Assembly (NCBI GenBank): GCA_000091205.1
Contig: AP006498.2
DNA: 64,000 nucleotides
Source: Cyanidioschyzon merolae
Taxonomy: Eukaryota
Strand: one strand, 5' to 3'
Shown: one piece after another, positions 6,585 through 60,660 of the stretch
Position numbering within the stretch: the stretch's first letter is position 1
Layout of the letters: every line of letters starts with the position of its first letter
The notes under the pieces: model-generated
Database searches by the model: none
Told to the model about the DNA's origin: nothing
Seen by the model: the letters and a program-made list of their open reading frames with translations, nothing else
Position numbers and translations under genes: made by a program

Positions 6585-6619
6585 GCGCCACGACCAGCTC
6601 GCTATCCTGCATATGCTGC

Positions 6620-7367
6620 GTTGCAGGATCCGCCTGATCTTTTTCTGCACGATTCGTCACGGGCGATATCGAATACGGACCAGGACGATCCGCTTTCAAG
6701 CGCCGATAGTGTACACACATGGCTACGCCATCGGCTTCGATCATCCCAGTGAATACCTTTTGCTTGCTGGCTTTGAGACGCTTGAAGTCGAAGATATTCA
6801 TCCAGTGCGTCTCCCCGTTTTCACCGGTGAACTCCTCCGTGCTGACATCGAACTCCGGGCTGATCTCTCTCATGATCCCGTAAAGGACGCCGGAGTCGAT
6901 TGTCACAAAATGTGACTTGATGTTGCACAACGGAACGACGTTGAAGCGCTTACCCATTAGGAAAGCATCCCGTCTCTCCGACTTTTCATTTTTTCCCCGA
7001 CTCAGCTGCTCTTCGGCGTTGCGTTCGAGTTCTCGGTTCCGAAACAAGAAACAGCTTAGGATGACGGGATAACATCTTTTTTTCATTTCTGATACATTTT
7101 CTACGGGATTGACTGGCCCAAAACTGCACGGTGCTCCTGTATAGCCGCACGGATTACAGAAGCTTCATTTGTGCTGCTGTGTGACGTCTTCTTGTCGACG
7201 AATTCGATCTCCTGTCCACTCTGGCGATCGTTCGTGATACAATTGATGATGCCCCACATCCCTTTGCGCGAGATGCCCGGGTAGAGCGCAAAGATAGATC
7301 GTACCACGAAGCGTTCGAGGTTCACGGTCAGATGGTTCTTCAGGTTCGTCAGGTACTTCATGGGCAC
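6620..7367 (-). pseudogene. Truncated Fanzor-like ORF fragments of copy 1 (ORF A 7101..7367 and ORF B 6620..7086). The RuvC domains are missing.
   Basis: The proteins are about 93% identical to the copy 2 ORFs 26371..26637 and 25244..26356. Similarity ends before the GADPEN RuvC-I block. Confidence 0.7.
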
Positions 7368-8768
7368 TTAGAACTAAATATTCGAGTCATGCCTGTATCG
7401 AGTACCGTTGAAGCGGTACTTGGGGCATTTTTCGTGGAGGGCATATACTCGCGCATTTCGCTTCTACGCTTCCCCCGTGCCAAACATCAAGTGACGAATA
7501 AAGGTCTTGTCGAAAAATTCTTCCGGAACCTCTTCTGTTTCCATGCCCGTCACGTCGCGATACATATCCCTCGCGATATGCATCAGTCCTACGGCAGCGT
7601 CTCATACACTCATAGAGTGCGCCTCGAAACGGGTTCTGATGGCCTCTTGGGGCTTTTCCCTGTGCGGTTCTTTGATGTGTTTCAGAAGACAGGCTTTCAC
7701 CAGCATCTCGTAATATGATCGTCTTTCTCGCATCCATTGACGTCGGGCATCCCGCTGTCGCTTCTTCGACCTGTCTCGTTCCGCTTTGCTCGGCTCTGGT
7801 TTTCATTTTTCTCCGGCAGCCGGCGACGCCGGGCCTCCAGCATCCTCCACTTCCATTTCCATTACTTTCCATTGCTATGATAAGAATGCACTTTGGAAGC
7901 GTCTACTGTAAACTACGAAAAATCACTTGACTAGAGTACTGTAAGGGCTGAAACACGAATGAATCGCAAGACTATACTTTGCTATGACGTCAACGCAAAT
8001 ACGACTTGAACCTAAAGTACAACAACAAGTTAGCGAATGATCAGGATCGCAATTCCCTTCAAAAGCGAGATACGCGTCGAGTCTGATGCCTTCCAGACAC
8101 AGACGTGAGCGTAACGACAGCATTAAATGGAACAAAGAATAGAAACTCACTACTAACTAGCAATCCGATAGGAATTTCGTTTCCCACTACGATCGACGTT
8201 AAAAGGGGGAAAAGCTTGCCGTATCTTCGAAGGTTGATCTTCGAGGTGGAAAGTCTCGCGAGCCGGACGAATCCCCAGTGCTTGTGCTTCGTGCTCCACC
8301 CAGAGTCAGGTGATTTGGCGAGATCTGAGCAACTAATCCACAACGCAGTTTATTCTCGAACTAGGGGCAGTTGATGTGCCTCTGGGCGTCGCCCTGGTCG
8401 CAGTGGACTCTTAGTATATTGCTGCGCGCTGCCGCAGACAGACGTACTGTCTGCGCAGCTTGCGGACTCCCAGAATGATGATGTACGCCGACTCCGTGTC
8501 GATTGCAACACATCTCGAGCCGACGCCCTCAGTGGTACGGAAAAACCGTTCTGTCTCCGTGCAGCACCCGCTTCAGCGGTATAAGCGCTACGGCGAGTGC
8601 TCACGGCAGGCAGTCGTCGCAGGATAGAACATACGAAACGACCAGCGTATCCCAGAGGAATTGTAAGTAATGGAACCTGGAAGTAGGGTGCAGCATGGTG
8701 GACGATCACATGAATCTTAAAGCCCATCCCGGATTTCGGACTCCTTGGTCCATGGAAACGTTTTGTCA
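6620..8768 (-). mobile_element. Fanzor/TnpB-like nuclease element, copy 1. It is 3'-truncated and keeps only the 5' module, the leader and the N-terminal half of the ORF. It abuts the stop codon of the transporter gene.
   Basis: Region 6620-8093 is about 97% identical to 25880-27350 of copy 2. Region 8093-8768 is homologous to the 5' module of the other copies (same GAGATCTGAGCAAC and ATGGAAC.TGGA blocks). Homology stops about 35 bp after the transporter stop at 6584. The 5' motif block ATAGCGCGGTCGATAC... is deleted. Confidence 0.7.
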
Positions 8769-20281: not shown

Positions 20282-22564
20282 TGGCGCAGAACACCGGGCT
20301 GGTGCCGGGGCTGGTGCGGTGCGCCCCAGTGCGCGATGACCGCCCCCAGCAGGGCATTAGCCCAATAAACCCAGGTTCACGTCGCTGCATACGAGACATG
20401 TACTGAATCGAAAAGCCTCCCTAGACTTTTCCCGTAGACCAGTAGCGTCTGCTGCGAGCACGTTGCAGGTAACGGTGTCTGAGCGGGTCAGGTCTGGAGA
20501 GATAACGAGCTTCTGATTGGCAAACGAACACGCGCCATGCCGCGCGCAAAGCCCTGGGCATCTAATCGAGACGAGGGTGTTTTCCAGAATATGTCCAATA
20601 AGATCCCACTTTACTTTCCATGGACAGAACGTAGCTCCTGACGAGGGATTCTCGTGCCTGGCAGCGGCCGACGTCTCCTTTCAATCGACAGAGCATTCGT
20701 ACAGACCAGGAGTGCGTGCAGTTGCACGATGAGGATCGGCATCAGCGATAGCGTTCCACCAGACACCATCCATACTTGCGCTTGGAGAAACTGGTCGATG
20801 CGTATGATGCGCTGAGCGCCGTGCATGCTGTGAGTATGTAGAGCGCCAGTGCGCGCGCAGTATGGAGGCGGAACCGCCTCGCCGTGCCACCGAATGCATC
20901 GGCTCGGAGATCCCGATATCAGTGGGTTCAGAGTGCAACCATGCGCACTGGACTTGATGGCAGTCGTGCGATACCCGTGTCAGCATAAGGAGGAACATTG
21001 AACTGCTCGAGATATTGCTGCTTTTCGTTTTTTCTTCAATTTTTTAGGATGCATCGCCTCGGCATTCGGGGTGCAGCCTTAAGGCGTTGTGCATTCAAAC
21101 GTAGGTTGAGGAATCTTGGTCGTTTTCTCGGAATGACGCATTGGAGTCAATGCCGATGGACATGATTACGTTACCGAAATCAACTTGATTCGCGACGCTC
21201 TCGACCGATCGTCCCTAAAATAACCGAGAACACTATCCAGTACACAGGAGCGAGCCTCCGCGATTCTCGATTCCTGATGCATAGCTAGTTCAAACGACCC
21301 GTACTTCAAGTTTTCGATATTTCTGTTTCATGGGAATTTGTGAGCACAGAGCTTTGCGTCGGCGGAACGGCTGGGGGAAAATATTCGACGTCTTTGCTTC
21401 ACGACGCGTTCACGAGCTCACGCCGAACGTTCACTGGACGCGTCACCTCAAATAATCGATGCCGTTCGAGAGACAAATCATGCTCGGTTTGCGGCCGGCG
21501 AAGATACTGCATTCGACAGCGGCATGATACCGCTCTCTAAGTATGTCACTTGTGCTTCCCTGTGTCTCTTCTTTTGTTGATGGAATAGGGTTTTGGACTC
21601 GGACTTGGGTAGTTGCAGCGATCGCTCCTAATGGAGCGTGCGTCGCCACGCTGGACAAGACGCGCGTGACTGCATCGGAATTTCTAGACTTTTGCAGATG
21701 CCTGGATTTTGCTTCCGATACATATTCAATCATGGACAGCATCGCATTCCACGAATCCTGCATCGAATGGAACAGCGTGCGCTTGCGCGTCCAGCGGTCA
21801 GCGTCTTCGCCGACGGGATCGCGGAGAAGATGCCCTTAATCCCCGGGTACGGGTACGGGTGCGGAAGCGGAGCAAGTCTTCAACTGGAGCTGTGTGTATC
21901 CGTCTAGTCTGCGTTCCAGGCGATGAAGCAAGCGTTCAAGCGCCACAGAATGGCGCGCGCTGAGATACAGGTATGATGGACAAACGGGAGCACCTGCGTA
22001 TATTTCATGGACACCGCTGCAATGAGCGCACCAAAGCTCTCTACAAAGAACATGAAAACGGCAAGCAAAATGCAGATCGCTAGTTCCGCTCATGGAAGAA
22101 CTTCGTTTATGACTGTTGAAAGCAGTAAAGTCGGAACTCTGTTGCCGCCATCATCATCCGTCGAGTGCCGACGCTGCAGCTGGAGGGACGACAGTGATCC
22201 GCGACTTTCAAGCCAAATACAAGCGGAAGCGAACGGGAACAGTTGCAGCAACATCCCGTCAAGGCTGCTGCTCATGGCTCTGGGACGAGATCCGACCATC
22301 ATGGGTCTGAAAACCCGTGTGACCGAAGTGCACCCGTCCCATGTTTCGAACATGGCTGCCGTGCAACACTGCTGTTTGGGAGCGCAGTGTCTGCTTTTTT
22401 TGGTTAATGGCAGCAAGCGCACATTCGCGATAAACCATGCTGGGCTCGTTCATCAGACATCATACAGAATATTCGCCACTATCCGTTTGCGGAGGATTCG
22501 CCAGGATCGCAGAACTGCGGTTCATTGATGCCGACCGAGTCGTCTCTATACAAATCGCGGCATT

Positions 22565-24949: not shown

Positions 24950-27900
24950 CCGACGTGCAGACGTCTCCCAGTGTTTTTTGACCGGCCATCTACTACTGCC
25001 TCCAACTTATTCTCATCTAGTTTGACTTTGAGAGGTTGTCCAACAAAGTAGGCTCTCGACAGCTCGGGAGGTCTTTTTTCTCCATCACCACACATCTCCT
25101 GATATGGATAGCAGCATGAAAGTCACGATTCACAAACTCGATACATTTCTTGCCGCCGATGGTGGTTGTACTCAGTAATGGAAGGAGTCCTCGAACTTTC
25201 GCCCTCCATTCCATTTGCTCTGCAGTCAAGGCTCCGTACGTTTTTATATAACCTCAGGATTCCGCTGACACTTTTGCATCTCGACCCTCTGAAGTGTGCA
25301 CCGAAGCTCTTGGTGTATAAACGATGCTCGGAACTCATCTATGGGTACTGTGACAAATCGCCTCGCACACTCCGGGTACGTTCTTGGCGTTGCAGCTGGT
25401 GTGCTCTCTTTTTTCGACCCCCAGCGCCCTGCTCCGTATGCTACGACCAGCCTCTGACTTTCATCTCCTTTGAGGGCGCTCAACTCATTGAAAAAGTTCG
25501 CGAATGCACGCTGCTTCCCACAGTACAAGTTCAGACGCGGACGAGCCCGCCTGGGCATTGTATATTCTTTCCACAGCGCATTGCCATGAGCAACGCGAGT
25601 TTTGATGAATTCTCGAAAAGCTCGAAAGTCCGCTCCACGACTGGTAACATCGCGAATAGCTTCCAGGTGCTGTTTCGTGCCTGGATTCCATTTCTCAATT
25701 CTCTTCCTCGCACTCGTGAATCCCGATTCTCGATAGTATCTCGCCCTCGAGAACCTCAAAAGACGCATGTCTCTCTGGAAAAAGTTACCGTTGATACCAT
25801 ATTCCGCACGCTTGGGTACAGCGTTGGTTATTGTAGTCGCGTTCTCCGGGTCCGCGCCAACGACAAACTCGTTCTCCTGTACCTCCTGCGTCGCGGAATC
25901 CGCCTGATCGTTTTCTGCACGATTCGTCACAGGCGATATCGGAAACGGACCAGGAGGATCCGCTTTCAAGCGCCGATAGTGTACACACATGGCTACGCCA
26001 TCGGCTTCGATCATCCCAGTGAATACCTTTTGCTTGCTGGCTTTGAGACGCTTGAAGTCGAAGATATTCATCCAGTGCGTCTCCCGGTTTTCACCGGTGA
26101 ACTCCTCCCTGCTGACATCGAACTCCGGGCTGATCTCTCTCATGATCCCGTAAAGGACGCCGGAGTCGATTGCCACAAAATGTGACTTGATGTTGCACAA
26201 CGGAACGACGTTGAAGCGCTTACCCATTAGGAAAGCCTCCCGTCTCTCCGTCTCTTCATTTTTTCCCCGACTCAGCTGCTCTTCGGCGTTGCGTTCGAGT
26301 TCTCGGTTCCGAAACAAGAAACAGCTTAGGATGACGGGATAACATCTTTTTTTCATTTCTGATACATTTTCTACGGGATTGACTGGCCCAAAACTGCACG
26401 GTGCTCCTGTATAGCCGCACGGATTACAGAAGCTTCATTTGTGCTGCTGTGTGACGTCTTCTTGTCGACGAATTCGATCTCCTGTCCACTCTGGCGATCG
26501 TTCGTGGTACCATTGATGATGGCCCACATCCCTTTGCGCGAGATGCCCGGGTAGAGCGCAAAGATAGAGCGTACCACGAAGCGTTCGCGGTTCACGGTCA
26601 GATGGCTCTTCAGGTTCTTCAGGTACTTCATGGGCACTTAGAACTAAATATTCGAGTCATGCCTGTATCGAGTACCGTTGAAGCGGTACTTGGGGCATTT
26701 TTCGTGGAGGGCATGTACTCGCGCATTGCGCCTCTACGCTTTCCCCGTGCCAAACATCAAGCGACGAATAAAGGTCTTGTCGAAAAATTCTTCCGGAACC
26801 TCTTCTGTTTCCATGCCCGTCACGTCGCGATACATATCCCTCGCGAGATGCATCAGTCCTACGGCAGCGTCTCATACACTCATAGAGTGCGCCTCGAAAC
26901 GGGTTCTGATGGCCTCTTGGGGCTTTTCCCTGTGCGGTTCCTTGATGTGTTTCAGAAGACAGGCTTTCACCAGCATCTCGTAATATGATCGTCTTTCTCG
27001 CATCCATTGACGTCGGGCATCCCGCTGTCGCTTCTTCGACCTGTCTCGTTCCGCTTTGCTCGGCTCTGTTTTTCATTTTTCTCCGGCAGCCGGCGACGCC
27101 GGGCCTCCAGCATCCTCCACTTCCATTTCCATTACTTTCCAGTGCTATGATAAGAATGCACTTTGGAAGCGTCTACTGTAAACTACGAAAAATCACTTGA
27201 CTAGAGTACTGTAAGGGCTGAAACACGAATGAATCGCAAGACTATACTTTGCTATGACGTCAACGCAAATACGACTTGAACCTAAGGTACAACAACAAGT
27301 CAGCGAATGATCAGGATCGCAATTCCCTTCAAAAGCGAGATACGCGTCGAGTCTGATGCCTGCCAGATATGGAGATGCGGGTATCGACCGCGCTATATAG
27401 AAAAATAGGGAGAGATACTAGCCCCTAACCAGCAACTAGATAACAGTTTGCTCCCGCTCCACGGAAAGCATTGAAAGAGGGAAACGTTCTCCGTATTTAC
27501 GAAAGTTTATCGCCAAAGCGGAAGCGCCCTAGAGACGGACGAGTCAACGGTGATTGTACTTTGTAGGCATCTATAGTGCCGGGTGCTGAAGAGAGATCTG
27601 AGCAGAACGTCTGCAACGAAGATTACGCTGAGAAGAGCAGCGAACAGGATGCATCTAGACATCGCCCGAGACCCGATCGTCTCCGAGCATACCGCTTCGC
27701 GCTGCCGCAGGCAGTAGGCAGCAGGCCTTTCTGCACGGCTTTCCAGCTCCCAGAATGATCATGAATCCCGATGCCGTGTCGGGTGAACGATACCTCCAGC
27801 TGACGTCCTCAGTCATATGGCAATGCCTCGCAGTCTCTGTGCAGCATTCGAATCATCGGTATAGGCACTTTTGCTGACCATCAAGGCAACCTCGGTGCAC

Positions 27901-28045
27901 AATAGAACGTACGAAATAACCAGTACATCCGATAAAAAGTACAAGTCATGGAACTTGAAGGTAGCGTGCACCATGATGGATACGTTCACCGAATGCCAAT
28001 ATCTAATCACGGAATCAACGATGAATGGTCAATGTACGTTTTCTA
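24950..28045 (-). mobile_element. Fanzor/TnpB-like nuclease element, copy 2. It is full length and is the least damaged copy.
   Basis: The 3' end GTCTGCACGTCGG lies at about 24950. The three ORF segments are 25017..25229, 25244..26356 and 26371..26631. The 5' motif CCAGATATGGAGATGCGGGTATCGACCGCGCTAT lies at 27362-27395. The 5' module (GAGATCTGAGCAGAAC...ATGGAACTTGAAG) runs from 27590 to 28045. Confidence 0.75.
25017..26631 (-). pseudogene. Fanzor-like RuvC nuclease gene, in three segments. RuvC-I is [16 protein letters not shown] (Asp near 25852). The IDEFRAS block with Cys/His residues lies near 25336. RuvC-III is [13 protein letters not shown] (Asp near 25124). There is a single frameshift between 25229 and 25244, and a 10-bp gap relative to copy 3 between ORF A and ORF B.
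   Basis: The motif order and spacing are as in TnpB/Fanzor. The frameshift maps to GAGGTTATATAAAAAC, where the alternative frame continues as ...[19 protein letters not shown], matching copy 4 (...AIKKYGPLTEEQMETRAKL). The first ATG of ORF A is at 26631. Confidence 0.7.
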
Positions 28046-28513
28046 TCCAGCAAAAATATATCGGTAATAGGCGAGCGCTTCTGTAGCACTTGTGGCGGTA
28101 GTGAGGCGCACAGGGCTGAGCGCTCGCATGGGATGCACGCACTTGTCACACATCTGCTGGCGATGCCCTCAACCAACCAACCATCCAGCCAGCCAGCCAA
28201 GCAGGCGGGGGCAGCAGCGGGTGTTGTGCTTTCGTGCTGCCCGCGGTGCATAACTCACATACACCAGGGACGCTCGATCAAACTGCTCGTCTGGCTCACC
28301 GCGCCCAGACGCTGCAGTGACCAGAGTGCAACGCTTTCGGAGAGGTGTCGCACGGCAGACTCGGAGTTCGCTGCTCCTGCGGGCGACGACACCCGCCCGG
28401 GTGCTAGCGACGATACCGCTGCCGCAGCGCTATCCCGAATGATCATCACGACACCCGCATCTCCGTTCCTTACTTTTGTCCAGGGCATTAAAACCGAGGT
28501 TTACGTTCGATAG

Positions 28514-30352
28514 CTAGAGCTCTTTGGATCGACCAGAGTCTTGCACGATTCGATTCCAGAACGATGCGGCGGCAGCTGGCATTGCAGACCCCGCTGCATC
28601 GGTGACTTGGGCTGGTGCGTCTGGGGCCCTGGAGGGCGCCGCACGCTCCCTGTTGTCCGACACCTGAAGAGCGGCGGCATCCGTCGTTGGGGCAGTTCCG
28701 TCGCCTCCGGTGGAGCGCGTGCTGGGTGCCATCCAAACCGTCCCTCGATACGCCCGATCACGAGCTAGACCAGAGGCAAGTACATCCGCCATGGTGCGGT
28801 AGCGCGCTGTACCCGATGCGCTGGTTGTCTCCGTCTCCCCGAGGCGCGGGCGGTTCTGCAACATGTCCAAGAGGCGTTGTCGCTCCTGTTCTTCCTCTTC
28901 TCGTTGAATTTCGAGAAAACTGCGTCTTGACGGGCGTTGTTGTTGTTGGGCACGTTGCACCTGCGACTCAGCAGCACGTGCAGCGGCTCCGGCTAGCGAC
29001 AGGTGCGCGTTGCCAGCGCCAGTAGCGAGTGTCGATGCAGCGTTCGACGCCCATGGTGCAGGGCGTGCAACGCTCCCGCTACGATATCCTGGTCGATGCG
29101 ACCCGGCCTGCTGCTCAGCGGACGAACTCCTGGATCCAGTGTCTGAATGAACGCCTGGGTTCGTCACCAGCTTGTTCAACTGATCGAGCGCGTCCACTGA
29201 AGTCAATCGAACGTGAGAGTCCTGCGGCGCTAGTCTGGTCCGTAATTGTCGTTCTAGATACGCATGCTCTGGAGGTTCGATCTCTTTGCTGGCAGCTGAT
29301 GGCCACAACAACAACGTCGGGTTCGGATTCTCACGATCAGCGCCCGTCGCTGCTGCTCGATTACGGGCCTTTACCTGCTGCCATCCCTCGAGCTTGCTCG
29401 TGGTGCTGGCAGCGGCCTCGCTCGGAGCCAACGAAGCGTCTCCAAGCGAATGATCTCCCTGCTCTCCTGTTCTTAATGTGGCATCCGTGCTGTTTTTCTT
29501 CCTCCTGCGACGTCTTCGCGATCCAGCGGCTTGCTCTTGGGGCTCGTTAGCGCTTGTCGAGCCAGCTGCATCCGCTGCAACTGCTGCTAATGCATCTTTG
29601 GATGCCACGCTCTGGTTACTTGACGAAGCTGCCTCGGTGACCATCGCTGATGATACAACGGATCCGCGATCGGATACGCTCCGTGCCTCGCTGGTACCAG
29701 GGTCTGTCGATACCCCAGCAAAACCGGTATCCCGTGTACACTTCAGTGTAGATGATATGCTCTCAGAGTCATGTCCAGGGCGAACTGCAGCAGACTGCAG
29801 CGCTCTGGGCATTGCGTCAACCTCAGGGCTGCTGCGGACGGCTGGCCAAGGTCGCGAACTCCCCGCCGAGGGCGTTGCGATCCCTGGCTTTGGTTTCGTG
29901 CTCGAGACAGAGCCAGACGCTGGACCAGGCGCCGGTATGCTCTGGTCACGAACGCTGAGCGCTTCGACAGAGAGGTCTGGCGGCTGCCCTGGGGTTGCCT
30001 CACTGCCCAGCGGGGGCGCCTCGGCTGCGCTCCGAATCGTTGCATCTGTGGATAGCGCGGATGCAGTTCGACACTGCAAGTCCGCAGCAGTTCTCTGCAC
30101 CAGCGACCATAACACTCGGTTCATAGGCTGCGGCGAGGTTGACTCAGGCTGCTGGCTTATCGGTAGCCTTTCATCAAGAAATCCGTATCGCCACCATGCG
30201 ACGAGAAAAAGGGTTGGAAACGGGCCGCGTCTAGCTCCAGACGGATCTTGAAAGTACCATCGTGGCTGCGAATCATAGAGCACAGAGCTTACGGCCTGGT
30301 ACCAGAAGTTGGAGGCTCTCGAGTCGCCGCTCTCTAGCCCGTCGGCGTGCAT
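28514..30352 (-). CDS. GYF-domain protein, Ser/Ala/Arg-rich, about 612 aa from the first ATG.
   Basis: The N-terminal sequence NFWYQAVSSVLYDSQPRWYFQDPSGARRGPFPTLFLVAWWRYGFL matches the GYF consensus (W.Y.D..G..QGPF....M..W...GYF). The rest is low-complexity with an EEEQERQRL coiled segment. The ORF track start at 30361 is a TTG, and the ATG is at 30352. Confidence 0.5.
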   Translation of the reverse strand: MHADGLESGDSRASNFWYQAVSSVLYDSQPRWYFQDPSGARRGPFPTLFLVAWWRYGFLDERLPISQQPESTSPQPMNRVLWSLVQRTAADLQCRTASALSTDATIRSAAEAPPLGSEATPGQPPDLSVEALSVRDQSIPAPGPASGSVSSTKPKPGIATPSAGSSRPWPAVRSSPEVDAMPRALQSAAVRPGHDSESISSTLKCTRDTGFAGVSTDPGTSEARSVSDRGSVVSSAMVTEAASSSNQSVASKDALAAVAADAAGSTSANEPQEQAAGSRRRRRRKKNSTDATLRTGEQGDHSLGDASLAPSEAAASTTSKLEGWQQVKARNRAAATGADRENPNPTLLLWPSAASKEIEPPEHAYLERQLRTRLAPQDSHVRLTSVDALDQLNKLVTNPGVHSDTGSRSSSAEQQAGSHRPGYRSGSVARPAPWASNAASTLATGAGNAHLSLAGAAARAAESQVQRAQQQQRPSRRSFLEIQREEEEQERQRLLDMLQNRPRLGETETTSASGTARYRTMADVLASGLARDRAYRGTVWMAPSTRSTGGDGTAPTTDAAALQVSDNRERAAPSRAPDAPAQVTDAAGSAMPAAAASFWNRIVQDSGRSKEL

Positions 30353-31499
30353 CTCCGGCAACTCGAATAGACGCGAAACAACACCCTGCCCGTGCTTTGC
30401 ACTTCACTCGCTTCTGATGCTCTTCCAGATCAAGTAAAACGCGCGTTCAGAGACTCCCCCTTTGTTTTCCTGGTAAATCCCTTGCGTCAATCGCTGGTAC
30501 AGTGCCTCTCGCAAACCGTACGAGACGTCTTTCGAGCACAATCCGTGCCGAGTGCTTGCCAGCATGAAGCCGAATGCAGGTCGACAGCAGGTGTTCCGCG
30601 ACCTTGACTCCGTTACCGCGCTACCTAGGACCTTTTACAACAAGTACGTAACGGATGCTGTATACGAGAAAGACGATGCTCACGATCACCTGTGAGAAAA
30701 ACGCTCCAGGATAGCGCAAGTGGCTTGGAAAGCTCGCCGGGGCGCAGCTTTCGACGGCGTGAGACGCAACGCCGCGACATCGGCGCCCGGGCCTGTGTTT
30801 TTGCCCGACTTTTCGAGTCGATGCCTTGGGGCATCTGTTTTCGCGTGCAGCGGCAACTGGAGTCTTTGCGGGCATACAGTGCTATGTGCACCAGCGGCAA
30901 TGCCGCCCATGAGCACATATCGTGTAGGATGGTAGCAGTACGCACCCATTTGCGCTATAGAGACTGTGGGATGCTCGGTGGCGCTGGCCTAGGGCAAGGT
31001 GCACCCGTGCGCTCGGCAGCTTCCGGACCAGCACACCGTTTTCGTTTGTGTTGTGTTGTGCCTGCGAGGAGAACTCAATGAACGGAGTGCATCCTGTGGA
31101 TTCGAGAAAGATCTTGGAAAGACTCAGTGCTGTTCATGGTCACTAGAGAAAATGGACTTTAGTGGACAAGTAAGTCCGTCATTGTACGGTCAGCAGGTGG
31201 ACGAGGCACCACCCTCGCATCGTCCGTATACTGGACGGCGTGCTCCACGAAAAAACTGATTAAGAGCATTCGAGACGGTCGTTGCCTGTTGAATCTGTTC
31301 CAATCCATACGCGCTCTAAGAAATATTATCAATCATGACACAAAAAGGAAAGTTTCACCACCGGTGAGAGGATGAACAATGAAGAGAAAACTGTGGAATG
31401 AGACGAGCCTATGCTATGGAGAGAGCGCGTCGAACAATATACGAGCGATATCGTTCCGAAATGCGGACGCTTATTACAGAATCGACGGCCGCTCGTCTC

Positions 31500-31884
31500 A
31501 CTCAATGGGCCTCTATGCAAAACATTCTAGACCTGCATGTGGTAACGCAATGAGGCGCGAAGCGCTGTGCGGAACAACGTTACCGGCGAGCACGCGGATA
31601 GCGGCACCCGCGGCGGCGATGCAATTTCGGGATCGCCTGCGAATTATTACACGAACAGGGTCGTTGAGCATCTTGCTCATCATCGAAGCGTTCCTCGTGG
31701 CTGCCCGTTCACAAAGTCTTGGATGCTGCTCGTAGACAGCGTCGCCGTCCATCACTCTAAAGCGGTCGAGGAGTTCGTGGCTGAGACTGGCGTTGAGCTG
31801 CTCCTCGTGCCAGCCGATTCCCGCTGGCGCAAACCGGTCGAAGGCAGCTTCTCTGTTGTCGAGCGTTATTCTTACATTCGTTGA
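31500..31884 (+). pseudogene. Degenerate DDE(D) transposase C-terminal remnant, Tc1/mariner- or IS630-like.
   Basis: WMLLVDSVAVHHSKAVEEFVAETGVELLLVPADSRWRKPVEGSF follows the pattern h-DNA-x-pH-x-K-x-V-x-E-x-L-x-6-L-x-PpySPdLnPiE of mariner DDE_3 domains. Confidence 0.35.
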
Positions 31885-32164
31885 TCAATGGGCGAGCCAT
31901 TCACATCTATGACACGCTGCATCGACATGTCGTTCTATACTGCCTTTATCGGCCCGGAGCTGCTCTTTCACGCTTCTGCTCGTGCGCAGCGGAACGGAAG
32001 AGTGTGTTTCGGTCCATGGGCGTGCTCGCTACGGTTAAGGTGACGGAACGGGACTCGATGGCTTCTGGACACATACTCTGGATATGTGAGATTCAGAGCC
32101 TCCGCCAATTCAGTCGGTCTGCATTCCGAGGAAAGAAAGGATATAGAGTATAACGACCCCGTCC

Positions 32165-33460
32165 ATGCCATTTCGCGAAGTGAACGACAAGGCGATGAAG
32201 GATCTGGCCTCTATGGACAAGCACGAATCATTCGAGCAACTTTGCTCTGAGCATTTGTGGAGCTCGTACAGGCTTGCTCCATACCTGGCAAAAATGCGGG
32301 CAAGTTTAGATGGATTCCAGAGGACCGCTGTGTATCCATCTGCACGGATTTGGTGAAACTCGTGAAACCGGGACCTGAATCGAACGACGAGACTCATTTT
32401 CAACCATTCAATGTGGATGAAGAGAAAGGCAACCTATTGGGTGTGGATCCCGTGTCCGAACACATCATGGCCGTTGCCGTACCCGTAAACCAACAGTGCA
32501 GGGGCAAAGCCCTGAACGGAAACCAGACGACGATACGTAACTTGTTAAGGGCCCGGTATGATCGCGAGTCGGGCGTGATCGATACCAGGAGACCTACCGA
32601 CAAACGGAATGACAGTGCCAAAACCCCGAAGTCGACGCTCTGAGCACTGCATCGTGCAGAGCGGAATCCCCTGTTCGCCTCATTCAGAGTGAATATGAGC
32701 GTCGAAAACAGCTCATGCGGACGATGCTTGGTAAGAATACCCGAGAGCACGCTGTGGGTTGCCAACGATATCGGCTATGCGGGGGCGAGATGCATGTGTT
32801 CGAGAACTTGATCAATGTGCTTGGAAATGAAATGAACCGCAAGATGCGTCATTCGGTGGCAGCCCAAAGCGCTCAACGTACTGTGGCCCGCCAACGTAGC
32901 GCCTGTGCTCCCTCTACGAGCCCGCACAGCGCGTGCAGGATTCGATGCTGCACGATTCGCACCGATGCGTTCGGCACGACATCGGCACTATGGAGGCAAA
33001 TGTGCACACCGTGGTTAATAGACGTGGAGACGGGGACGAAACAGAGCCTGGATGCACGATGTGATGTACGGGAAGCTGACCGCAGGTCAGAGAGCGAAGC
33101 AATCGAAGGTGCGAGGCTTGCGATGCGGTGATTCCACCATCCCGACTACGTTCGAGAACGCGCTGCACCGAGACTTGAACGCCTCGATGACGACCCGGAA
33201 ATAGCATGCGCTTCGCGAGCGTCCAGCAGCTTTGTTTCGAGCGTTGCTTCGAGCGAATCGTTTTGTGCGCTGTATGGGTACTGTGTTGAAACGCACCAAA
33301 CGCACGATGAAGCGATTCGGCGGCCAGGGGAATCGACGTTGGATTCTGGCCTTGAGCACGGTACTGATATGGGACTGTTCGGCTATCCAGCAAGGCTGCC
33401 GCACCGACTTTATCAGTCCCGAAGGATTCAACTCAGCTAAGGATGAACGAAGATAGTGTT
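32165..33460 (+). pseudogene. Highly degenerate fifth Fanzor-like copy. RuvC-I is LLGVDPVSEHIMAVAVPVN, followed by TTIRNLLRARYDRESGV, then YRLCGGEMHVFENLINVLGNEMNRK and FGGQGNRRW.
   Basis: These blocks align to copy 2 as [56 protein letters not shown] and VVAYGAGRW. The fragments are spread over several frames, and no RuvC-III is recognisable. Confidence 0.45.
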
Positions 33461-34052
33461 CCATGACTCGATATGACGAATTACATCGTAGCCGCCGCAT
33501 GCTAGACTAGGAATGCGTTACGAAAGGCACAATATCTGCAATACTGGACTCGAGGTGGAAAGTTGTAGCGCTGGTGTGCGTCTATCACCGGACAAAGTGC
33601 TGTTCCTGGACGACGGCAGACGCAAGAGCATCTGCTGCCTCTGGCATCGTATTTCGGCGCGGTGGACTCGGGACCGGCTCCCCTGCAGACTCGACCAAGT
33701 TTCTGAACAAGAAATGGCATTTTATGCCTTTCATGAAACAGCGCCCTGCCGTCGGACTGTCATCTGGTTCTTCCTCGAGGCACCTCGAAGAAGCGTTCCC
33801 AGGACTAGAAAAAAGCATGCGCACAACCGAGTTGCGCTCAGATGCCTGTGTACACCAGGGTCGCTGACGAGCTGGACGTCCATGAACTGCACAGACTCGT
33901 CGAGTCATCGCAGCGGAACTCGAGTGGATCGCACCAACGAGGCTCTCACGAGCCACCGCGACGACTCTCTGTGATCAAAAAGGTGCTGCGATCGGTACGG
34001 AAGCAAGCGAGCAACTGCCTCCAGACGCTGCACCCAATCGTTTGCTCGCTGA

Positions 34053-35480
34053 TCAACTGTCTGATGTGTGTGGGAATCCTTCAATGAAACGTCGATAGAT
34101 GGCAAGCTTGTCGACGACCTCTCGCCACAGTGCGACTGGGCCCTCTGCACCCTGCGATACGGCCTGTGCTCGATACTCACCAAGACGCTTCGAGATATTC
34201 CAGGAGAACCGAGACCGTTCACGCCATGCAGTGCTTTTGCCAGCGCTCGTACTGGCGTCCAGGTCTCGTTCGGGTGACTCTGCAACAAAAGGCGGTGGAG
34301 GTACACGCGGACCTAAGATCAGCTCCGCCGACGCTGACGCTACGTACCATACGCCTTGGTGAACTTCTCTCTCGAGTTGGCCAGGTTCCCAGCCACAGTA
34401 ACCGCAGAAGAAACGAACTCGATCGGGGCGAGCAAGCGAACCGCGGCGCGCCAGTTCAGTAAGGCGACCAAGTCCACCGCAATAGACGCCCCCCGGCACA
34501 ATTTCGTACGCAACTTCGTCAGCTGCGCTCCCCGGCAGCTGCTGACGATCGTTCGATGCCAGCAGAGAGCTTTCATCATGGAGCACCAGCAGGGAATCGA
34601 GACCAACCGGGCCACCCAGGTAGAGCGCCTCTCTGCCAAAAACACGCCCCAGGTCGGTGCCCGCCAGAGAGCTAACGAATGATATGCGCTGGGCTGCGCG
34701 GCGGTTCATGATGACCCCCGTTGTACCGTCACTGCCGTGCTCCAGAACGAGAATCACTGTTTGTGCAAAGTACTGCTGTTCATTGAGGAAATGTTTCGGG
34801 GACGCAACCAGAATGTTGCCGGTTTCGATCGCAGTAACTGGATGCACCCAGCGCATGTCGATATCAGCACCAGTCCATTCCATGGAATTCATGCGAGGTG
34901 TCTCCTGCACACGCTGCGGTGAAGCGTGCAGTGCGTCCCCGGTCGAGGAGCTGGGGTCAAGCAGTTCGCCTGCTTTGCTTGCACGGTTCTCGGTCGCAGC
35001 GTTCTCAGGTGACTCAGCCGGTGCACTCCCTTCAGTTTCGACTGTACCGAATGCGTCACCGTATTCGAGCTCTCGCCGCAAGAGTTGCATTCGGAACGCG
35101 CGCCAGTCACGGAGACGCTCGCGAACGTGTGCCTCGTAACCTGCGTGGCGTCGCTGCGACCTCCTCCTCCTCCTCCTCGAGCTGTCAGGAGTGTTCGCGT
35201 CAGCACCAGCGCCGTGGTTATGATCCTGCTCTGGAGGCTCTCCAGTATTTGAGGCACACGCACGCACACGGAACGAGATAGGCACCGTTCTTGGACTAGA
35301 GACGCTCCCAGACGACCCGTAGCCGAGCCCCGAGCCTGACCATTGACAAACGGATAACCGTCGGTGCCTCTGGAGCGACTGCTGCTGGACCCTGGTCCGT
35401 TGTCCCCGACTGGAACAGTTACAAACTATCCAAGTCATGTACAGGTAGAGCCGGTTTGCCTGAAAGTTCGCAGCGTGCAC
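34053..35480 (-). CDS. YqgE/AlgH-family protein (DUF179, UPF0301) with a basic N-terminal extension. The ORF start is a GTG. The first ATG is at about 35438, or in an upstream exon.
   Basis: GNILVASPKHFLNEQQYFAQTVILVLEHGSDGTTGVIMNRRA...LYLGGPVGLDSLLVLHD...RFFCGYCGWEPGQLEREVHQGVWY matches the DUF179 consensus (LiA.P...d.nF.rsVill.eh...Ga.GlilNrp...GGPv.....lh...F.Gy.gW..gQLe.Ei..g.W). Confidence 0.6.
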   Translation of the reverse strand: MHAANFQANRLYLYMTWIVCNCSSRGQRTRVQQQSLQRHRRLSVCQWSGSGLGYGSSGSVSSPRTVPISFRVRACASNTGEPPEQDHNHGAGADANTPDSSRRRRRRSQRRHAGYEAHVRERLRDWRAFRMQLLRRELEYGDAFGTVETEGSAPAESPENAATENRASKAGELLDPSSSTGDALHASPQRVQETPRMNSMEWTGADIDMRWVHPVTAIETGNILVASPKHFLNEQQYFAQTVILVLEHGSDGTTGVIMNRRAAQRISFVSSLAGTDLGRVFGREALYLGGPVGLDSLLVLHDESSLLASNDRQQLPGSAADEVAYEIVPGGVYCGGLGRLTELARRGSLARPDRVRFFCGYCGWEPGQLEREVHQGVWYVASASAELILGPRVPPPPFVAESPERDLDASTSAGKSTAWRERSRFSWNISKRLGEYRAQAVSQGAEGPVALWREVVDKLAIYRRFIEGFPHTSDS

Positions 35481-35679
35481 GTATCAAAAGCGCTTCCGAA
35501 GAACGGAGGCAAGTGAGGCGGAAAGCGAGCACCATACCGGTGGCAGTTACGCTTCCGCATACGCGAATCGCAACCGCAGAACGGGCAGCAGCAACGGCAG
35601 GGCGTCGATGATCGGGACACGGCCGTTGCACCACCGGCGCTGGTGCGCATTCATCAGCCGTTGCGCCTCTCGCGCTGAA

Positions 35680-36310
35680 AAGACGCGTTTCCACGGATCA
35701 GGGGATCCCAGATTGCCGGATGGACGGGTATTGGCATTCGGGAATGCGTCCAGGATGCTGCAGCCTATCTCCAAGTTCCATTGCTTGTACTTCCTCTCGG
35801 AAATACTGGTTGTTCTGTGGGTTCTATCGTGAACAGAGTGCCTGCGTCGCTGCTCCCGCCGTAGCGTCTATATCGCTGGAGTGGATGCAGCACGGAGATA
35901 GAGCTGTGCTTTGTCGTACCACTGAGGGTATCTGTTTGAGGAACGCTTCACCTGAAACGGTGTCGGGATACATAGTGAGTTTGGGAGCCAGAAATCTGTC
36001 CAGACAAGCCTAGTGCCTGCGACAGCTCGAATTGATATTCTGGGCGTCCACTGCGACCCGGGCGACGCCCAGATGCAGCGGAACTGCCCCGAGTCTCAGA
36101 GTCAACTGCGTTGCGTACGAGTTGCTCAGATCTCGCTAGAGCACCGGGCACGGAGGAGAGCATGGAGCACGAGCCTGGCAGACTCGCGCGGCTTGCAGGA
36201 TCTGCTACCTATACGGTAAACTGTCGACAATATGGAAACATTTTCCCGCTTTTAACGTTTATCTCAGAGGACGAAAGAAATCGTTGTATCGTTGCTAGTT
36301 GGTGAATCGT
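35680..36310 (+). repeat. Left arm of a long inverted repeat of about 650 bp. It is about 98% identical to the reverse complement of 38850..39537, and equals the 5' module of the element.
   Basis: Sampled about 200-nt stretches have only 3-4 mismatches. The ORF track shows mirror-image ORF pairs (36013..36219+ versus 38982..39188-, and others). Confidence 0.85.
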
Positions 36311-36791
36311 TTTTGCTCTTTGTTTGCATAGCGCGGTCGATACGCGCACCTCCATATCTGGTAGTTACGAGATGCGACGCGCATCTCGCCGTTGAAGGGA
36401 AACGCTATCAGGATAATTAGCAAGGTGTTCGACCCTACAAGTTGTACTTGCGTTAAAGCCATCGCAAAGTGTATTCCCTAAATTCAGTTGTGTTCCACTC
36501 TCAAAATAGTATATTCATATGCGTTTTCGCAGCTTACAACAGAAACCTTCGAAGTGCCTTTTATTTCAAAAATAAAAAAGTTATGGAACTGGAATTTGAG
36601 GATCCCGGAGGGCCGGTGTCGCCGACTGCCGAAGAAAAATGAGAAGCAGAGCCGAGCAAACAGGAACTGGAAAAGACGAACAAGCAGAACGGGGAGGCCC
36701 GACGTCCGGAGTTGTACGAAAGACGACAGTACCACGAGATTGCGGAGTAAGCCGGATTTCCTAAACATATCATGGACCGTACAAGGAAAAG

Positions 36792-38700
36792 TTGCAAGAT
36801 GCCATCAGAACCCGTGTCGAGTCCTTCTCTAAGAGTGTTCGTAACGCTTCTTTAGTGCTGATGCATATGGCGAGGGAGATGTATTACGACGTTACAAACG
36901 TCAAAACAGTCGAGGTTCCGCAGGAATTTTTAGACAATACCTTCATTCATCACCTGAAGGTTGGCGCAGGGGAAGCATCGTGGGGAAATGCGCGAGTACA
37001 TGCCCTCCAGGAAAGTTACACTGAATACCGCTTCAAGGTTACTCAATACAGGGGTGACTCGCGTATCTACGAGTACGGGGCGATGAAGTACCCCACGAAC
37101 CCGAAGAACCATATGTTCATGGACCTCGAACGCTTCATGATACGCTCCGTCTTCGCACTCTGCCCGGGTCTCTTGCGCAAAGCGATATGGAACATTATCA
37201 ATAGCATCACGGACGATCGCCAGCATGAACAAGAGATGAAATTCGGTAACAAGAAGAAATCACACAGTAGAAAGAATGAAGACTCTGTGATCCGTGCGGC
37301 TCTACAGGAGCACTGTGCGGTACTGGGGCTGCCGAATCCAGCAGAAAAGGTATCAGAGTTAAAGAGAGTTAAAGAAAGATTTTATATCTTCTTCCTGCTG
37401 TATTTCGTGTTTCCGAACCGAGAGCTCGAACTCAAGGCGGATATGGAGCAAGGTGTGGAAGAGCATGACGAGTCGTAGAAACGGAAGGCTGCGCTTCTTG
37501 GCAAGCGCTTCAATGTCATTCCATTATGCGACGTCAAATCACATTTTGTGATCATCGACTGCAGAGTCCTTTACAGCATCATGAAGGAGATCCGTCTGGA
37601 GTTCAATCTAAGCAACAGGGGGTTTACGGGTGAAAATTGGGAGACGTGCTGCAAGAAGATCCTCGATTTCAAACGCCTCAAAACGAGCAAGAATAAGGTA
37701 CTCACAGGCATCATCGAAAGCGATGGAGTAGCGAAGTGTGTACACTGTCGGCGGTTGAAGGTTGATCGTACTGGTCCGTCTTCCTTGTCGCCCACGGCGG
37801 AGCATGAACATGAGAAACTGGAGGATCTTGCGACGCAGGGGGTGCATGAGAGCGACTTTGTCGTTGGCGCGGACCCTAAGAATACGAATCTCGTAACCGT
37901 CGCAGCACCCAAGCGTGCGGAGGATGTTAACGACGGCAACTTACGTCATAACGACGTGCGTCTTTTAAAGTTCTCGAAAGCGAGATATTACCTAGAATCG
38001 GGAAAAATGAATGCAAGGAAAATAATTGAGACATGGAATGCAGGAGTGAAAGAGTACCTGGAAGCTGTGATCCAGGTGACGAGCCGCGGTGCGGAGTTTC
38101 AAGCTTTTCGGGAATTCATGAAACCTCAAACTGCTCATCAACAGGAGCGGTGGAAAGCGTATATCAAGCTCTGGTGGGCACATCAGCGAATGAACCTGGA
38201 CGGAGGCAAGCAGCTTGCATTCACTAACTACATCAATCAGTTAAGCACCCTCTAGGAAGACAAGGGTCAAATGCTCGTAAGAGCGTACGGAGCAGGGCGC
38301 TGGATAACCAAAACGGGAGCATACCTGCTCCGTTGACGCAGGGAGTACAAGGAGTGAGCATACCGTTCTGTCACAATACCGATAGATAAGTTCCGAACGT
38401 CCTATATACACCATGAACTGGGGGTGTACACGTCATTTGGTCGAGATGCAAAAGTGCCACCGGAGCGCTGGGGATATAGACAAGTACGGAGCGCTGACGG
38501 AAGAGCAAAGGGAAGGGACACGGAGGGCACAAATTTGAGGTCTACTTGCACTGGTGTATATAACCGGCTGCGGCAAGAAACGGATGGATTTTGTGAATCG
38601 TGACTTTAATTCAGTCGTCAATAAAGAGAGCTGTGCGTCGATGGATACAAGACCCGCGGAGCTGGCGCGACCCAACTTTTTGGGGCAACCGCTCAGGGTT
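36792..38700 (+). pseudogene. Fanzor-like nuclease gene of copy 3. It has a frameshift between 37478 and 37548 and further shifts after 38255. RuvC-I is FVVGADPKNTNLVTVAAP. The RuvC-III equivalent is mutated (RDFNSVVNK instead of RDFHAAINI).
   Basis: It aligns block-for-block with copy 2. The N-terminal region (QDAIRTRVESFSKSVRNASLVLMHMAREMYYD...) is open here, whereas copies 1 and 2 carry four nonsense codons in the same region. Confidence 0.65.
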
Positions 38701-38849
38701 AAATTATATGAGAGAAACTGAAGCCAGGAACAGGCGGCCGGTCGAGAAAGGCTGTTAGACGTCTGCACGTCGGTTTATACACACGCACGGTATCGGCGTG
38801 ATGGACGGAACGGCACGTCTAACAACGGGAGAGCGAAAGCAAGTGATGT

Positions 38850-39537
38850 GCAGCTATAGCGATGATCCACATGGTTGAAAAGGAACAGAGACGCACGATC
38901 CACTAGCAACGATACAACGATTTCTTTCGTCCTCTAAGATAAACGTTAAAAGCGGGAAAATGTTTCCATATTGTCGACAGTTTACCGTATAGGTGGCAGA
39001 TCTTGCAAGCCGCGCGAGTCTGCCAGGCTCGTGCTCCATGCTCTCCTCCGTGCCCGGTGCTCTAGCGAGATCTGAGCAACTCGTACGCAACGCAGTTGAC
39101 TCTGAGACTCGGGGCAGTTCCGCTGCATCTGGGCGTCGCCCGGGTCGCAGTGGACGCCCAGAATATCAATTCGAGCTGTCGCAGGCACTAGGCTTGTCTG
39201 TACAGCTTTCTGGCTCCCAAACTCACTATGTATCCCGACACCGTTTCAGGTGAAGCGTTCCTCGAACAGACACCCTCAGTGGTACGACAAAGCACAGCTC
39301 TATCTCCGTGCTGCATCCACTCCAGCGATATAGACGCTACGGCGGGAGCAGCGACGCAGGCACTCTGCTCACGATAGAACCCACAGAACAACCAGTATTT
39401 CCGAGAGAAAGTACAAGCAATGGAACTTGGAGATAGGCTGCAGCATCCTGGACGCATTCCCGAATGCCAATACCCGTCCATCCGGCAATCTGGGATCCCC
39501 TGATCCATGGAAACGCGTTTCGGAAAAGCGAAAATCT
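38850..39537 (-). repeat. Right arm of the inverted repeat. It is a second, inverted copy of the 5' module placed immediately after the copy 3 tail. It may be the right TIR of a TIR-type transposon carrying the nuclease gene.
   Basis: See the left arm. The outer end CCATGGAAACGCGTTTCGG mirrors the left terminus. Confidence 0.8.
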
Positions 39538-48194: not shown

Positions 48195-49537
48195 AGTCTG
48201 GGCACGGGCGACGCTTGCCACAGCTGGTATCGTTGGGTAAATGTCAACGCAATGAAGGCTGCAACTTTTGAGGCAGTTCGCACATTTTTCAAGTCTGTTT
48301 GCTGTTCTCGACCGTGTTCAGCAAAGGGCATGTATCCAGTGGCGCGTAGAAACGTCGTAAGGATTTTTGCTATATGTAGGATTCGGTTGTGAAGAAAACG
48401 ACTTTTTGAGACAAGTCAGTCGCTCCAGGGCCAGCCCATGGATGAGTCTGGCGTCTCGTGGTCGCTATACGACCTGACATGTGCCATGAAAACAGCACGT
48501 ATCATTATGGATCTGCACGACGGTATCCTCGTCAATCCATACCAGTCTATACGACCTCTATGAAATACGAACAGAGACGCCGTAGGATGTGAAGTATCCG
48601 GACAATTCATGCGAACAGTCGTGAGGAGACGCAATGGGCCAAGAAACAGGTACGCTTCGACTGTGGATCGTAGCGTGCTGAACAACACGCCATCGATGTC
48701 GTACTGGAATGCGACTGGGTTTGACTATAGGGACGGGGATTCGTCTCACGTGATGAGCGTTTATTCGGTGAAAACCCTAGACTTGTGTATGGGTTCTCAG
48801 AGCGCGGCAAACCGCTGTTCGTGAAGAAGAGCCAGGCGAGTGTGCAGCTAGCCATGGCAAGGAGAGAGGGCATGGGACGCGCGCCTGGAGCAAGACACGG
48901 ATATGGTGCGGTTCAGCAAACAGGCAAGGTTGGGGCGCCTCATATGTACCCCAGAAACGAAATTCCTGGGCAATTGGTGAGCGATAACGATGTTCGATTC
49001 TTGGATTGACGGCGTCTAGGTGATTCGCTGGACCAGCGTAAACGTTGCCATATGAGCGGCATCGCGCTGACTCGAGCCCCAGTGGTGAAGCATGGTCGCT
49101 GTCGACAATGGGATAGGATCCGCATCCAGCACGTCTTTTCGCAGGCCGTGCTGACGATGCGAAGCGGTCTCCAGGTACGTCGCCGCAAGTTACGGGACCG
49201 TTGCACCGTTGCTGTGGTGTATCGAACGGTGGGAGTGCTTGTCGCATGACTAGCACCACCGCCACTACTACGATTATTATTACTACCACTACTGGGCGTA
49301 CTGGTGCGCCATCAGGCAAGCGAAAGCTGGTGCTGTCCCGTTCCTCGCCCAGAGGCTCCGTGCTTTCAAACATGGCAGCGGCATGCGTCGCTTCCTCTTT
49401 TTTCATGATTTACAGCAATTGCACGCTGTCATGTACGGGTCATTTCGAGCGCATCCGCTTCACGGGTCGTGCGCAACCCCGACGAGACGATAACGCTTGC
49501 TCGACGACGACGACGACGACGATGACAAGCACAATTT

Positions 49538-60195: not shown

Positions 60196-60329
60196 CGCGC
60201 CATCCGCAGGGCAGCGTACGGAGCGGCAGGCACTGGTGCGATCGCTGTCCAATGATGGGCAGTTTCTCGAAGACGAAACGTTCACGTGGACCATGGATCC
60301 CAGATTGTGGGGTAGATATTCGCGCTGGG

Positions 60330-60660
60330 GAAAGCATCCACGAATCTGTACTCTGCCTTCAAGTTCGGTTCCTTACTCTTGCTCTAGGATATTCTGGTGG
60401 TTTTGTACGTAATATCGAGCGTCGAGTGCCTGCTCTGAGTATCCACGAAACTGTACTCTGCCTTCAAGTTCGGTTACTTACTCTTGCTCTAGGATATTCT
60501 GGTGGTTTTGTACGTAATATCGAGCGTCGAGTGCCTGCTCTGAGCATCCACGAATCTGTACTCTGCCTTCAAGTTCGATTACTTACTCTTGCTCTAGGAT
60601 ATTCTGGTGGTTTCGTACGTAATATCGAGCGTCGAGTGCCTGCTCTGAGCATCCGCCGGA
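60330..60660. repeat. Tandem repeat of about 108 bp x3, derived from the 5' part of the element module (…CAAGTTCGGTTCCTTACTCTTGCTCTAGGATATTCTGGTGGTTTTGTACGTAATATCGAGCGTCGAGTGCCTGC…).
   Basis: The unit anchors ATCCACGAA(T/A)CTGTACTCTGCC recur at 60335, 60440 and 60545. The unit is homologous to the single-copy stretch CAAGTTCCATTGCTTGTACTTCCTCTCGG...GAACAGAGTGCCTGC of the copy 3 left arm. ORF 60252..60800, with three repeated peptides, is an artefact. Confidence 0.85.

Follow-up and report, generated by a model that had tools for sequence, protein, structure and literature searches.

The window analysed here is a stretch of 64,000 nucleotides of contig AP006498.2 from Cyanidioschyzon merolae 10D. 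The locus under study is surrounded by host genes of an intron-poor eukaryote, and five long open reading frames (ORFs) of the window correspond exactly to GenBank proteins in the range BAM81695-BAM81710. The two genes that flank the locus are both on the minus strand, a GYF-like gene at 28514-30361 and an AlgH/DUF179 gene at 34053-35480, and only short broken ORFs are present between them. Positions 31007-33485 (~2.48 kb) are very probably the fossil of one composite cut-and-paste transposon of the IS630/Tc1-mariner type which carried a Fanzor1 nuclease gene. That the transposase and the nuclease originally belonged to one element is held with high confidence. The following features were distinguished in the relic.

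31007-31037, plus strand: putative decayed left terminal inverted repeat (TIR), GTGCGCTCGG...CAGCACACC, a weak match placed at the start of the homology among the window and the sister relics L015 and L019.
31087-31890, plus strand: pseudogene of an IS630/Tc1-type DD34E transposase, interrupted by several stops and shifted in frame at least twice; its best-preserved part is the ORF at 31567-31884.
31891-32337, plus strand: spacer that remains where the N-terminal half of Fanzor1 (~330 aa) was lost, with similar short spacing in L015 and L019.
32338-33201, plus strand: Fanzor1 pseudogene, RuvC half, in three reading frames.
33202-33455, plus strand: non-coding 3' tail, at the position of the guide (omega) RNA scaffold in characterised Fanzor/TnpB elements.
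33456-33485, plus strand: putative decayed right TIR, GTGTTCCATGACTCGATATGACGAATTACA, where the homology with L019 stops; intact elements have right TIRs that align with it, e.g. GTGTTCCACAATTCATTTTCATGAGTATA of L021.

A sequence-only reading of the window had described the ORF at 31567-31884 (plus strand) as a C-terminal DDE_3 remnant. This ORF matched positions 76-131 of the 146 in the Pfam DDE_3 profile with an E-value of 1.4e-6; its score of 28.7 bits is marginal, as the cutoff is 28.6. It also matched the NCBIfam IS630 model (NF033545) with an E-value of 2.8e-6, and the score of only 27 bits against a cutoff of 100 is due to its being a fragment. A hidden Markov model (HMM) of 13 full-length relatives, referred to as the lineage HMM, matched 31645-31872 at E=5.8e-16. 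The remnant is therefore real, and it is larger than had been described. Decayed N-terminal pieces with stop codons were detected at 31090-31164 and 31286-31414 by way of the better-preserved L019 (joint E=1.2e-5), which extends the pseudogene to about 31087-31890 and makes the ORF its best-preserved third. Pfam analysis of three-frame translations of 30700-33650 revealed nothing beyond the DDE_3 match.

A word-indexed homolog search with the DDE fragment returned just the same locus in other assemblies. Exhaustive phmmer against 1.8 billion representatives found 36 relatives at E<=1e-3 with 32-52% identity, a count that leaves out P0122, which is the same locus. Among them are full-length proteins of ~300 aa with helix-turn-helix (HTH_Tnp_Tc3_2, HTH_23) and DDE_3 domains. 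These match DDE_3 at E=1e-22 to 1e-28, pass the NCBIfam IS630 cutoff of 100 with 111-131 bits and show weak matches to Sleeping Beauty and Mos1. The correspondence is also plain to the eye, with LLVDSVAVHHS...LVPADSRWRKPVEGSFSVVER aligned to LLDNVAFHHS...YVPPYSPWFNPIEGAFSIAKR. The second Asp (31735-31737) and the Glu (31840-31842) stand in columns that are invariant or nearly so among the relatives, and they are separated by exactly 34 residues, as in the DD34E pattern. For the first Asp, part of a DETSFG motif, no secure counterpart can be named in the window. IDGRSS, found near 31480 in a different frame, is a candidate, and the motif region is covered in L019. Three more relics of the same IS630-type lineage were detected in the window with the lineage HMM, at 3755-4271 (plus strand, E=2.6e-13), 21597-21758 (plus strand, E=7.7e-5) and 48734-48847 (plus strand, E=7.6e-6). 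With the relic studied here, four DDE relics of one lineage are thus present in 64 kb. The C. merolae genome paper reportedly counts just eight class II elements genome-wide.

The decayed nuclease claimed downstream in the same orientation was recovered with two HMMs, whose E-values are relative to the 2,080 stop-to-stop reading-frame pieces of the window. The HMM of the solo Fanzor family, which has four other copies in the window, gave three collinear plus-strand matches in three frames, at 32422-32622 (E=5e-6), 32760-33035 (E=2e-6) and 33064-33201 (E=0.04). The HMM of Fanzors linked to DDE transposases matched 32338-32622 (E=7e-8), 32628-33044 (E=1e-8) and 33085-33192 (E=0.017). The motifs LLGVDPVSEH, RARYDRESG and YRLCGG..FENLIN, pointed out in the sequence-only reading, align with the HMM at the places claimed for them. 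The fourth string listed there, FGGQGNRRW (33310-33336), is a false match and not the AYGAGRW motif: the HMM puts that motif at ~32860 (VAAQSAQR), and the string lies beyond RuvC-III in the non-coding tail. The nuclease homology ends at 33201 and not at 33460, and it starts ~450 bp, not ~300 bp, after the DDE ORF has ended. The RuvC-I Asp (GVDP, 32446-32448) and the RuvC-III Asp (HRDLNA, 33172-33174) are kept. The Glu of the DEFRT motif, invariant in the clade, is Ala in the relic (DAFGTTS, 32967-32969, with TTS retained), so the relic nuclease is catalytically dead.

Positions 1-300 (1-331) of the Fanzor HMM found no match upstream of the remnant (31891-32337). The distance from the DDE end to RuvC-I is ~550 nt in the window, ~450 nt in L015 and ~490 nt in L019, compared with ~1,225 nt in the intact element L018. 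The short spacing in all three relics indicates a shared deletion of the N-terminal half of Fanzor1, and ~0.55-0.8 kb of coding sequence for this half is deleted in the window copy. The tail at 33202-33455 has ~70% DNA identity to L015 and L019 and gives tblastx matches on both strands, and hence carries no coding signal. Its folding z-score of +0.66 reveals no residual structure.

L015, L016, L017 and L019 all show a DDE fragment followed by weak collinear Fanzor remnants. Their alignments to the window show 69-76% DNA identity, and the offset hardly changes between ~31046 and 33497. The homology among the window, L015 and L019 starts near 31007-31030 and stops near 33485, and both ends resemble the TIRs of intact elements weakly; on the left, 31007-31037 aligns weakly with 5'-GTTAYACTC...GTTACAC. 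The reading frames of the three copies are broken at different places. L015 is almost wholly relic and has no identifiable host flank. The flank of L019 is an ABC1 kinase gene, whose product is 82% identical to a Cyanidiococcus yangmingshanensis protein. L019 was considered as the orthologous locus in another species, and this was rejected, as its right flank is the ABC1 kinase instead of DUF179. Because of this different flank, L019 is a deleted derivative at a different site in another Cyanidiales lineage, one related to Cyanidiococcus. The same deleted architecture recurs in L015 and L019 at ~70% DNA identity, so that a derivative which already had the deletion either spread or came down by inheritance from an ancient invasion of the Cyanidiales. 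In environmental C. merolae, the relic locus is fixed and ~99% identical across numerous independent metagenomic assemblies. No paralog of 31300-33600 was found within the window by blastn and tblastx.

Intact relatives combining the two genes were found in metagenomes. L018 encodes an intact 302-aa transposase (93-1001) followed after a gap of 10 nt by a Fanzor1 homolog, which matches the solo-family HMM at E=1.2e-119; the contig stops inside this ORF, at HMM position 510. A scan with the transposase alignment identified 80 metagenome loci that encode relatives of the transposase, with GC contents from 21% to 65%. Of the 44 loci whose contig extends 1.5 kb or more downstream of the transposase, 40 have a nuclease there in the same orientation (36 of 39 when 2 kb or more is available), and it is an intact single ORF of 586-802 aa in 26 of the 80. 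The limits of the element can be read from independent insertions. L044 648-3628 and L042 59-3039 are identical (100%) over 2,981 bp and share the element alone, and the pairs L021/L023, L080/L082 and L055/L058 likewise share exactly the element. Both genes are enclosed by inverted repeats of ~30 bp, GTTAYACTC...GAGTRTA, which are clear in four intact subfamilies. Whole intact elements measure 3.0-3.6 kb, and 185-225 nt of non-coding tail separate the nuclease stop from the right TIR.

The search for intact DDE-nuclease copies between shared TIRs, proposed along with the sequence-only reading, thus succeeded in metagenomes; for the C. merolae genome it covered the 64-kb window only. These tandems, together with the collinear DDE-to-nuclease architecture of the window relic, L015 and L019, support the proposal that the DDE fragment is a relic of the carrier. 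Three live tandem elements (L073 3-4730, L037 4595-7915, L089 3324-5558) adjoin genes of large-DNA-virus type: a Herpes_ori_bp-type helicase, a D5_N primase-helicase, a C962R-type AEP primase and DUF5672. The D5-like and C962R-like primase neighbours on the longer contigs identify several hosts as large DNA viruses, and many hosts of live tandem elements are probably giant viruses.

Membership of these nucleases in Fanzor1 follows from profile homology to solved Fanzor1 proteins. The window Fanzor copies have 222 homologous proteins in JGI and ENA metagenomes, one of them also in MetaClust, which correspond to the precomputed family PF26935/DUF8286. A profile of 24 diverse clade members matched the Fanzor1 structures of Parasitella parasitica (9cf0, E=6.3e-17) and Spizellomyces punctatus (8gkh, E=4.7e-10), with alignments spanning both the RuvC-I region and the DEFRTS...NRD region. 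Its match to Guillardia theta Fanzor1 (9cer, E=6.4e-4) covers the RuvC-I side only (profile positions 295-480). D314 (24/24), E486 of DEFRT[ST] (24/24) and D555 of NRD (22/22) are invariant in the clade. The diverse profile alone succeeded against PDB sequences; phmmer with single ORFs and a shallow profile gave no match. Pfam gave no match to the good Fanzor copies or the full-length homologs (the Pfam copy used was without PF26935/DUF8286), and the Pfam TnpB models had no sequence-level match to the clade. An AlphaFold2 model of P0012 from a shallow alignment reached a mean pLDDT of only 37 and was unusable. A C4 zinc ribbon is part of the published Fanzor/TnpB motif (PMC3627910). Between the [TS][TS] and RD motifs, none of the 24 clade members has conserved CxxC pairs; the DEFRT[ST]-NRD stretch (~63250-63500 in solo copy c4) contains one His column (62%) and one Cys column (50%). 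As far as profiles can tell, the clade is a branch of Fanzor1 that lacks the zinc ribbon.

The four solo Fanzor copies of the window are located as follows.

~8000-6562, minus strand: copy c1, truncated.
27270-24949, minus strand: copy c2.
36488-38774, plus strand: copy c3.
61245-63650, plus strand: copy c4.

CMe-1A is the sole Fanzor1 family listed for C. merolae, with ~150 copies of ~3 kb, no TIRs, an unknown transposase and a 5' portion of 635 bp which is the TE-N2_CMe element (PMC3627910). Set against this description and not against a consensus sequence, the four solo copies fit CMe-1A in their size of ~3 kb, their lack of TIRs and their TE-N2_CMe-like leader. The possibility that CMe-1A has Tc1/IS630-type TIRs was tried and rejected, as the motif was counted 3 times where chance predicts 5.7, and never at an element end. 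In a crude neighbour-joining tree (223 columns, midpoint root), CMe-1A is sister to L018/L020/L021/L024 and nested in a wider radiation of DDE-linked Fanzors, which suggests, and does not prove, that CMe-1A lost its transposase. Judged by sequence affinity, the relic belongs to a sister lineage of CMe-1A and not to the family of the four solo copies.

Some further observations were made on the solo copies. Copy c3 is surrounded by a 617-bp inverted repeat of 98.4% identity (35683-36299 / 38902-39518). Its left arm is the 5' leader, common at 66-70% to all four CMe-1A copies (8704-7949, 28001-27219 and 60544-61272 in the others), and its right arm resembles an inverted copy of TE-N2_CMe type. 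The c1 (6562-8097) and c2 (25854-27366) regions are direct repeats ~19 kb apart, with 90-95% protein identity. The ENA contigs L004 and L005 join 2471-8097 directly to 25854-35806 via this repeat and lack the intervening 19 kb with its ABC transporter, CAF1B and hydrolase genes. Either this is a true indel polymorphism that arose when the repeats recombined, or the assembler collapsed them. The ORF 60252-60800, at the upstream margin of the c4 leader, contains three tandem repeats of ~39 aa (~60330-60700), SIHE[ST]VLCLQVR[FL]LTLALGYSGGFVRNIERRVPAL, and therefore a DNA tandem repeat of ~117 bp. Another array of this sort may be present at L001 15659-16013, where three 38-aa ORFs follow one another.

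The remnant could be thought of as a fifth, heavily decayed and 5'-truncated CMe-1A copy with a fragment of a DDE transposon beside it. The solo-family HMM does detect the remnant at E ~1e-6, and the motifs noticed first match CMe-1A proteins. The similarity is nevertheless greater to DDE-linked Fanzors, with summed blastx bits of 122 (L021 Fanzor), 104, 93 and 78 against 62-67 for CMe-1A proteins, and with 33% identity to L020 against 24-27% to CMe-1A members over 223 columns; a true CMe-1A copy would be expected at about 80% identity to its family. Comparison of the relic with the four window copies by blastn and tblastx revealed no similarity to the CMe-1A leader (~635-750 bp) or body, and the lineage HMM found no DDE remnant adjoining any of the four. 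A fifth CMe-1A copy is accordingly very unlikely. The label of a fifth copy given in the sequence-only reading is misleading, since the relic is not a copy of the element family of the other four; its alternative suggestion, an older lineage of the same family, agrees with these scores and holds together with that of the carrier.

A chance meeting of two unrelated pieces of debris, in which an IS630-like transposon landed beside or inside an older Fanzor relic and the two never formed one element, draws on the abundance of such debris in the 64 kb, which contain four DDE relics as well as five Fanzor loci, and on the position of the DDE piece at the place of the missing N-terminal half of the nuclease. 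It is already largely refuted by the collinear recurrence of the same junction and spacing in L015 and L019, the latter in a different genomic context, by the presence of the nuclease in 40 of 44 live relatives of the same transposase lineage, within one TIR pair, and by the grouping of the relic nuclease with DDE-linked Fanzors; only a slight chance is left to it. Slighter still is the chance that the 105-aa DDE ORF and the 128- and 138-aa nuclease ORFs are selected and expressed host genes of a domesticated locus. Fixation of the locus at ~99% identity and its alignability at ~70% across Cyanidiales lineages would suit such genes. Their frames are broken at different places in the three relics, however, and tblastx is equally strong on both strands, a signal at the level of DNA and not of coding. 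The invariant nuclease Glu is replaced, the transposase is without a readable N-terminus, and none of the three ORFs is among the proteins with an NCBI source.

Several observations weigh against the origin of 31007-33485 from one composite transposon, or against parts of it. The repeat search at the relic ends gave a single 14-nt arm pair of 79% identity and no convincing TIR by itself. No target-site duplication is readable in the relic and none is unambiguous in the intact elements; a TA duplication is not unambiguously readable in any copy. No intact tandem element of C. merolae itself was seen within the 64-kb window, and the three other DDE relics have no detectable nuclease remnant adjoining them. 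L053, L084, L090 and L093 contain the transposase and at least 1.5 kb of downstream sequence with no detectable Fanzor (4 of the 44 informative loci), so transposase-only forms exist. Absence of the zinc ribbon applies to the whole clade, to CMe-1A-type and DDE-linked Fanzors alike. Where a guide RNA is concerned, no Rfam family was found in the relic or in intact elements, and folding of intact tails against shuffles supports structure in only three of four (z = -3.0, -2.8 and -3.3), with -0.15 for L021.

The relic is a dead member of an already published kind of element, the Mariner/Tc1-type transposon with Fanzor1. Fanzor1 inside Mariner-type elements was published by Bao and Jurka 2013 (PMC3627910) and in PMC10530073. 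The former includes PUl-1 of Pythium ultimum and PGv-1 of Phaeocystis globosa virus, and in the latter Jiang et al. 2023 associated Fanzor1c with Mariner/Tc1. The premise of the sequence-only reading, that Fanzors are passengers of other DNA transposons, is covered by the same two papers (PMC3627910, PMC10530073), so its interpretation was correct and not new in kind; its observation was largely right and partly confirmed. Like PUl-1 and PGv-1, the element described here is one TIR-bounded unit with a Tc1/mariner-superfamily transposase and Fanzor1, often virus-borne, and several of its live relatives adjoin D5-like and C962R-like primase genes, which are characteristic of large DNA viruses. 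It differs in its compact IS630-type transposase of ~300 aa, which passes the NCBIfam IS630 cutoff, and in that the window copy is dead. Compared by description, PGv-1 has a third gene (GIY-YIG), while the elements here have none.

CMe-1A shares the genome and the Fanzor1 clade (DUF8286) with the relic, and its HMM recovers the nuclease of L018. It differs in having a 750-bp 5' leader common with TE-N2_CMe, no Tc1/IS630-type TIRs and no transposase, whereas the relic has a transposase gene, TIR remnants and a nuclease nearer to DDE-linked Fanzors. The intact relatives share HTH and DDE_3 domains, DD34E spacing, a length of ~300 aa and short TIRs with bacterial IS630 elements. To our knowledge, classical IS630 elements encode the transposase only; here a Fanzor1 passenger is added, and the hosts are eukaryotes and large DNA viruses. 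By analogy, the pairing of a transposase with an RNA-guided RuvC nuclease may be compared with TnpA and TnpB of IS200/IS605 and IS607, which use a Y1 or serine recombinase and not a DDE transposase, in prokaryotic hosts. That the guide RNA of TnpB comes from the end of the element is established (cited in PMC10690162).

The live form is pictured as an element of 3.0-3.6 kb with TIRs of ~30 bp (5'-GTTAYACTC...GAGTRTA-3'), a DD34E transposase of ~300 aa, a Fanzor1 of 590-800 aa that follows it directly in the same orientation, and ~200 nt of non-coding 3' tail. From its IS630 family membership, the transposase would excise and reinsert the whole unit by cut and paste. Fanzor1, if it acts like TnpB and characterised Fanzor systems, may bind an RNA from the 3' tail and the right end and cut DNA that matches the flanking sequence of the element, which would help the element to persist or spread. 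The copy in the window is dead: its transposase is full of stops and frameshifts, the N-terminal half of its Fanzor1 is deleted, the DEFRT Glu is Ala and its TIRs can hardly be recognised. The relic itself is without function.

The relic ties the class II 'bacterial-like' transposase relics of C. merolae to the abundant Fanzor1 repeat CMe-1A, two groups listed separately in the literature. The nesting of CMe-1A in the tree and the live tandem elements on giant-virus-like contigs hint at a larger history, which is put forward tentatively and is on balance doubtful. The relic could be the fossil of the founding invasion behind the dominant repeat of C. merolae: an IS630-type transposon with Fanzor1, possibly delivered by a giant virus, would have entered the ancestor of Cyanidioschyzon and Cyanidiococcus; a deleted derivative would have spread or been inherited; and one branch would have lost the transposase and the Tc1-type ends and become CMe-1A, which would then need some other route of movement. 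What the relic adds to the published kind is modest, namely that CMe-1A appears nested among transposase-linked Fanzors. More broadly, a compact tandem of an IS630-type transposase and Fanzor1 within ~30-bp TIRs is widespread in environmental sequence of eukaryotes and giant viruses. It provides dozens of small complete elements, such as L044 648-3628 and L021 440-4055, in which the co-operation of a DDE transposase and an RNA-guided nuclease may be tested.

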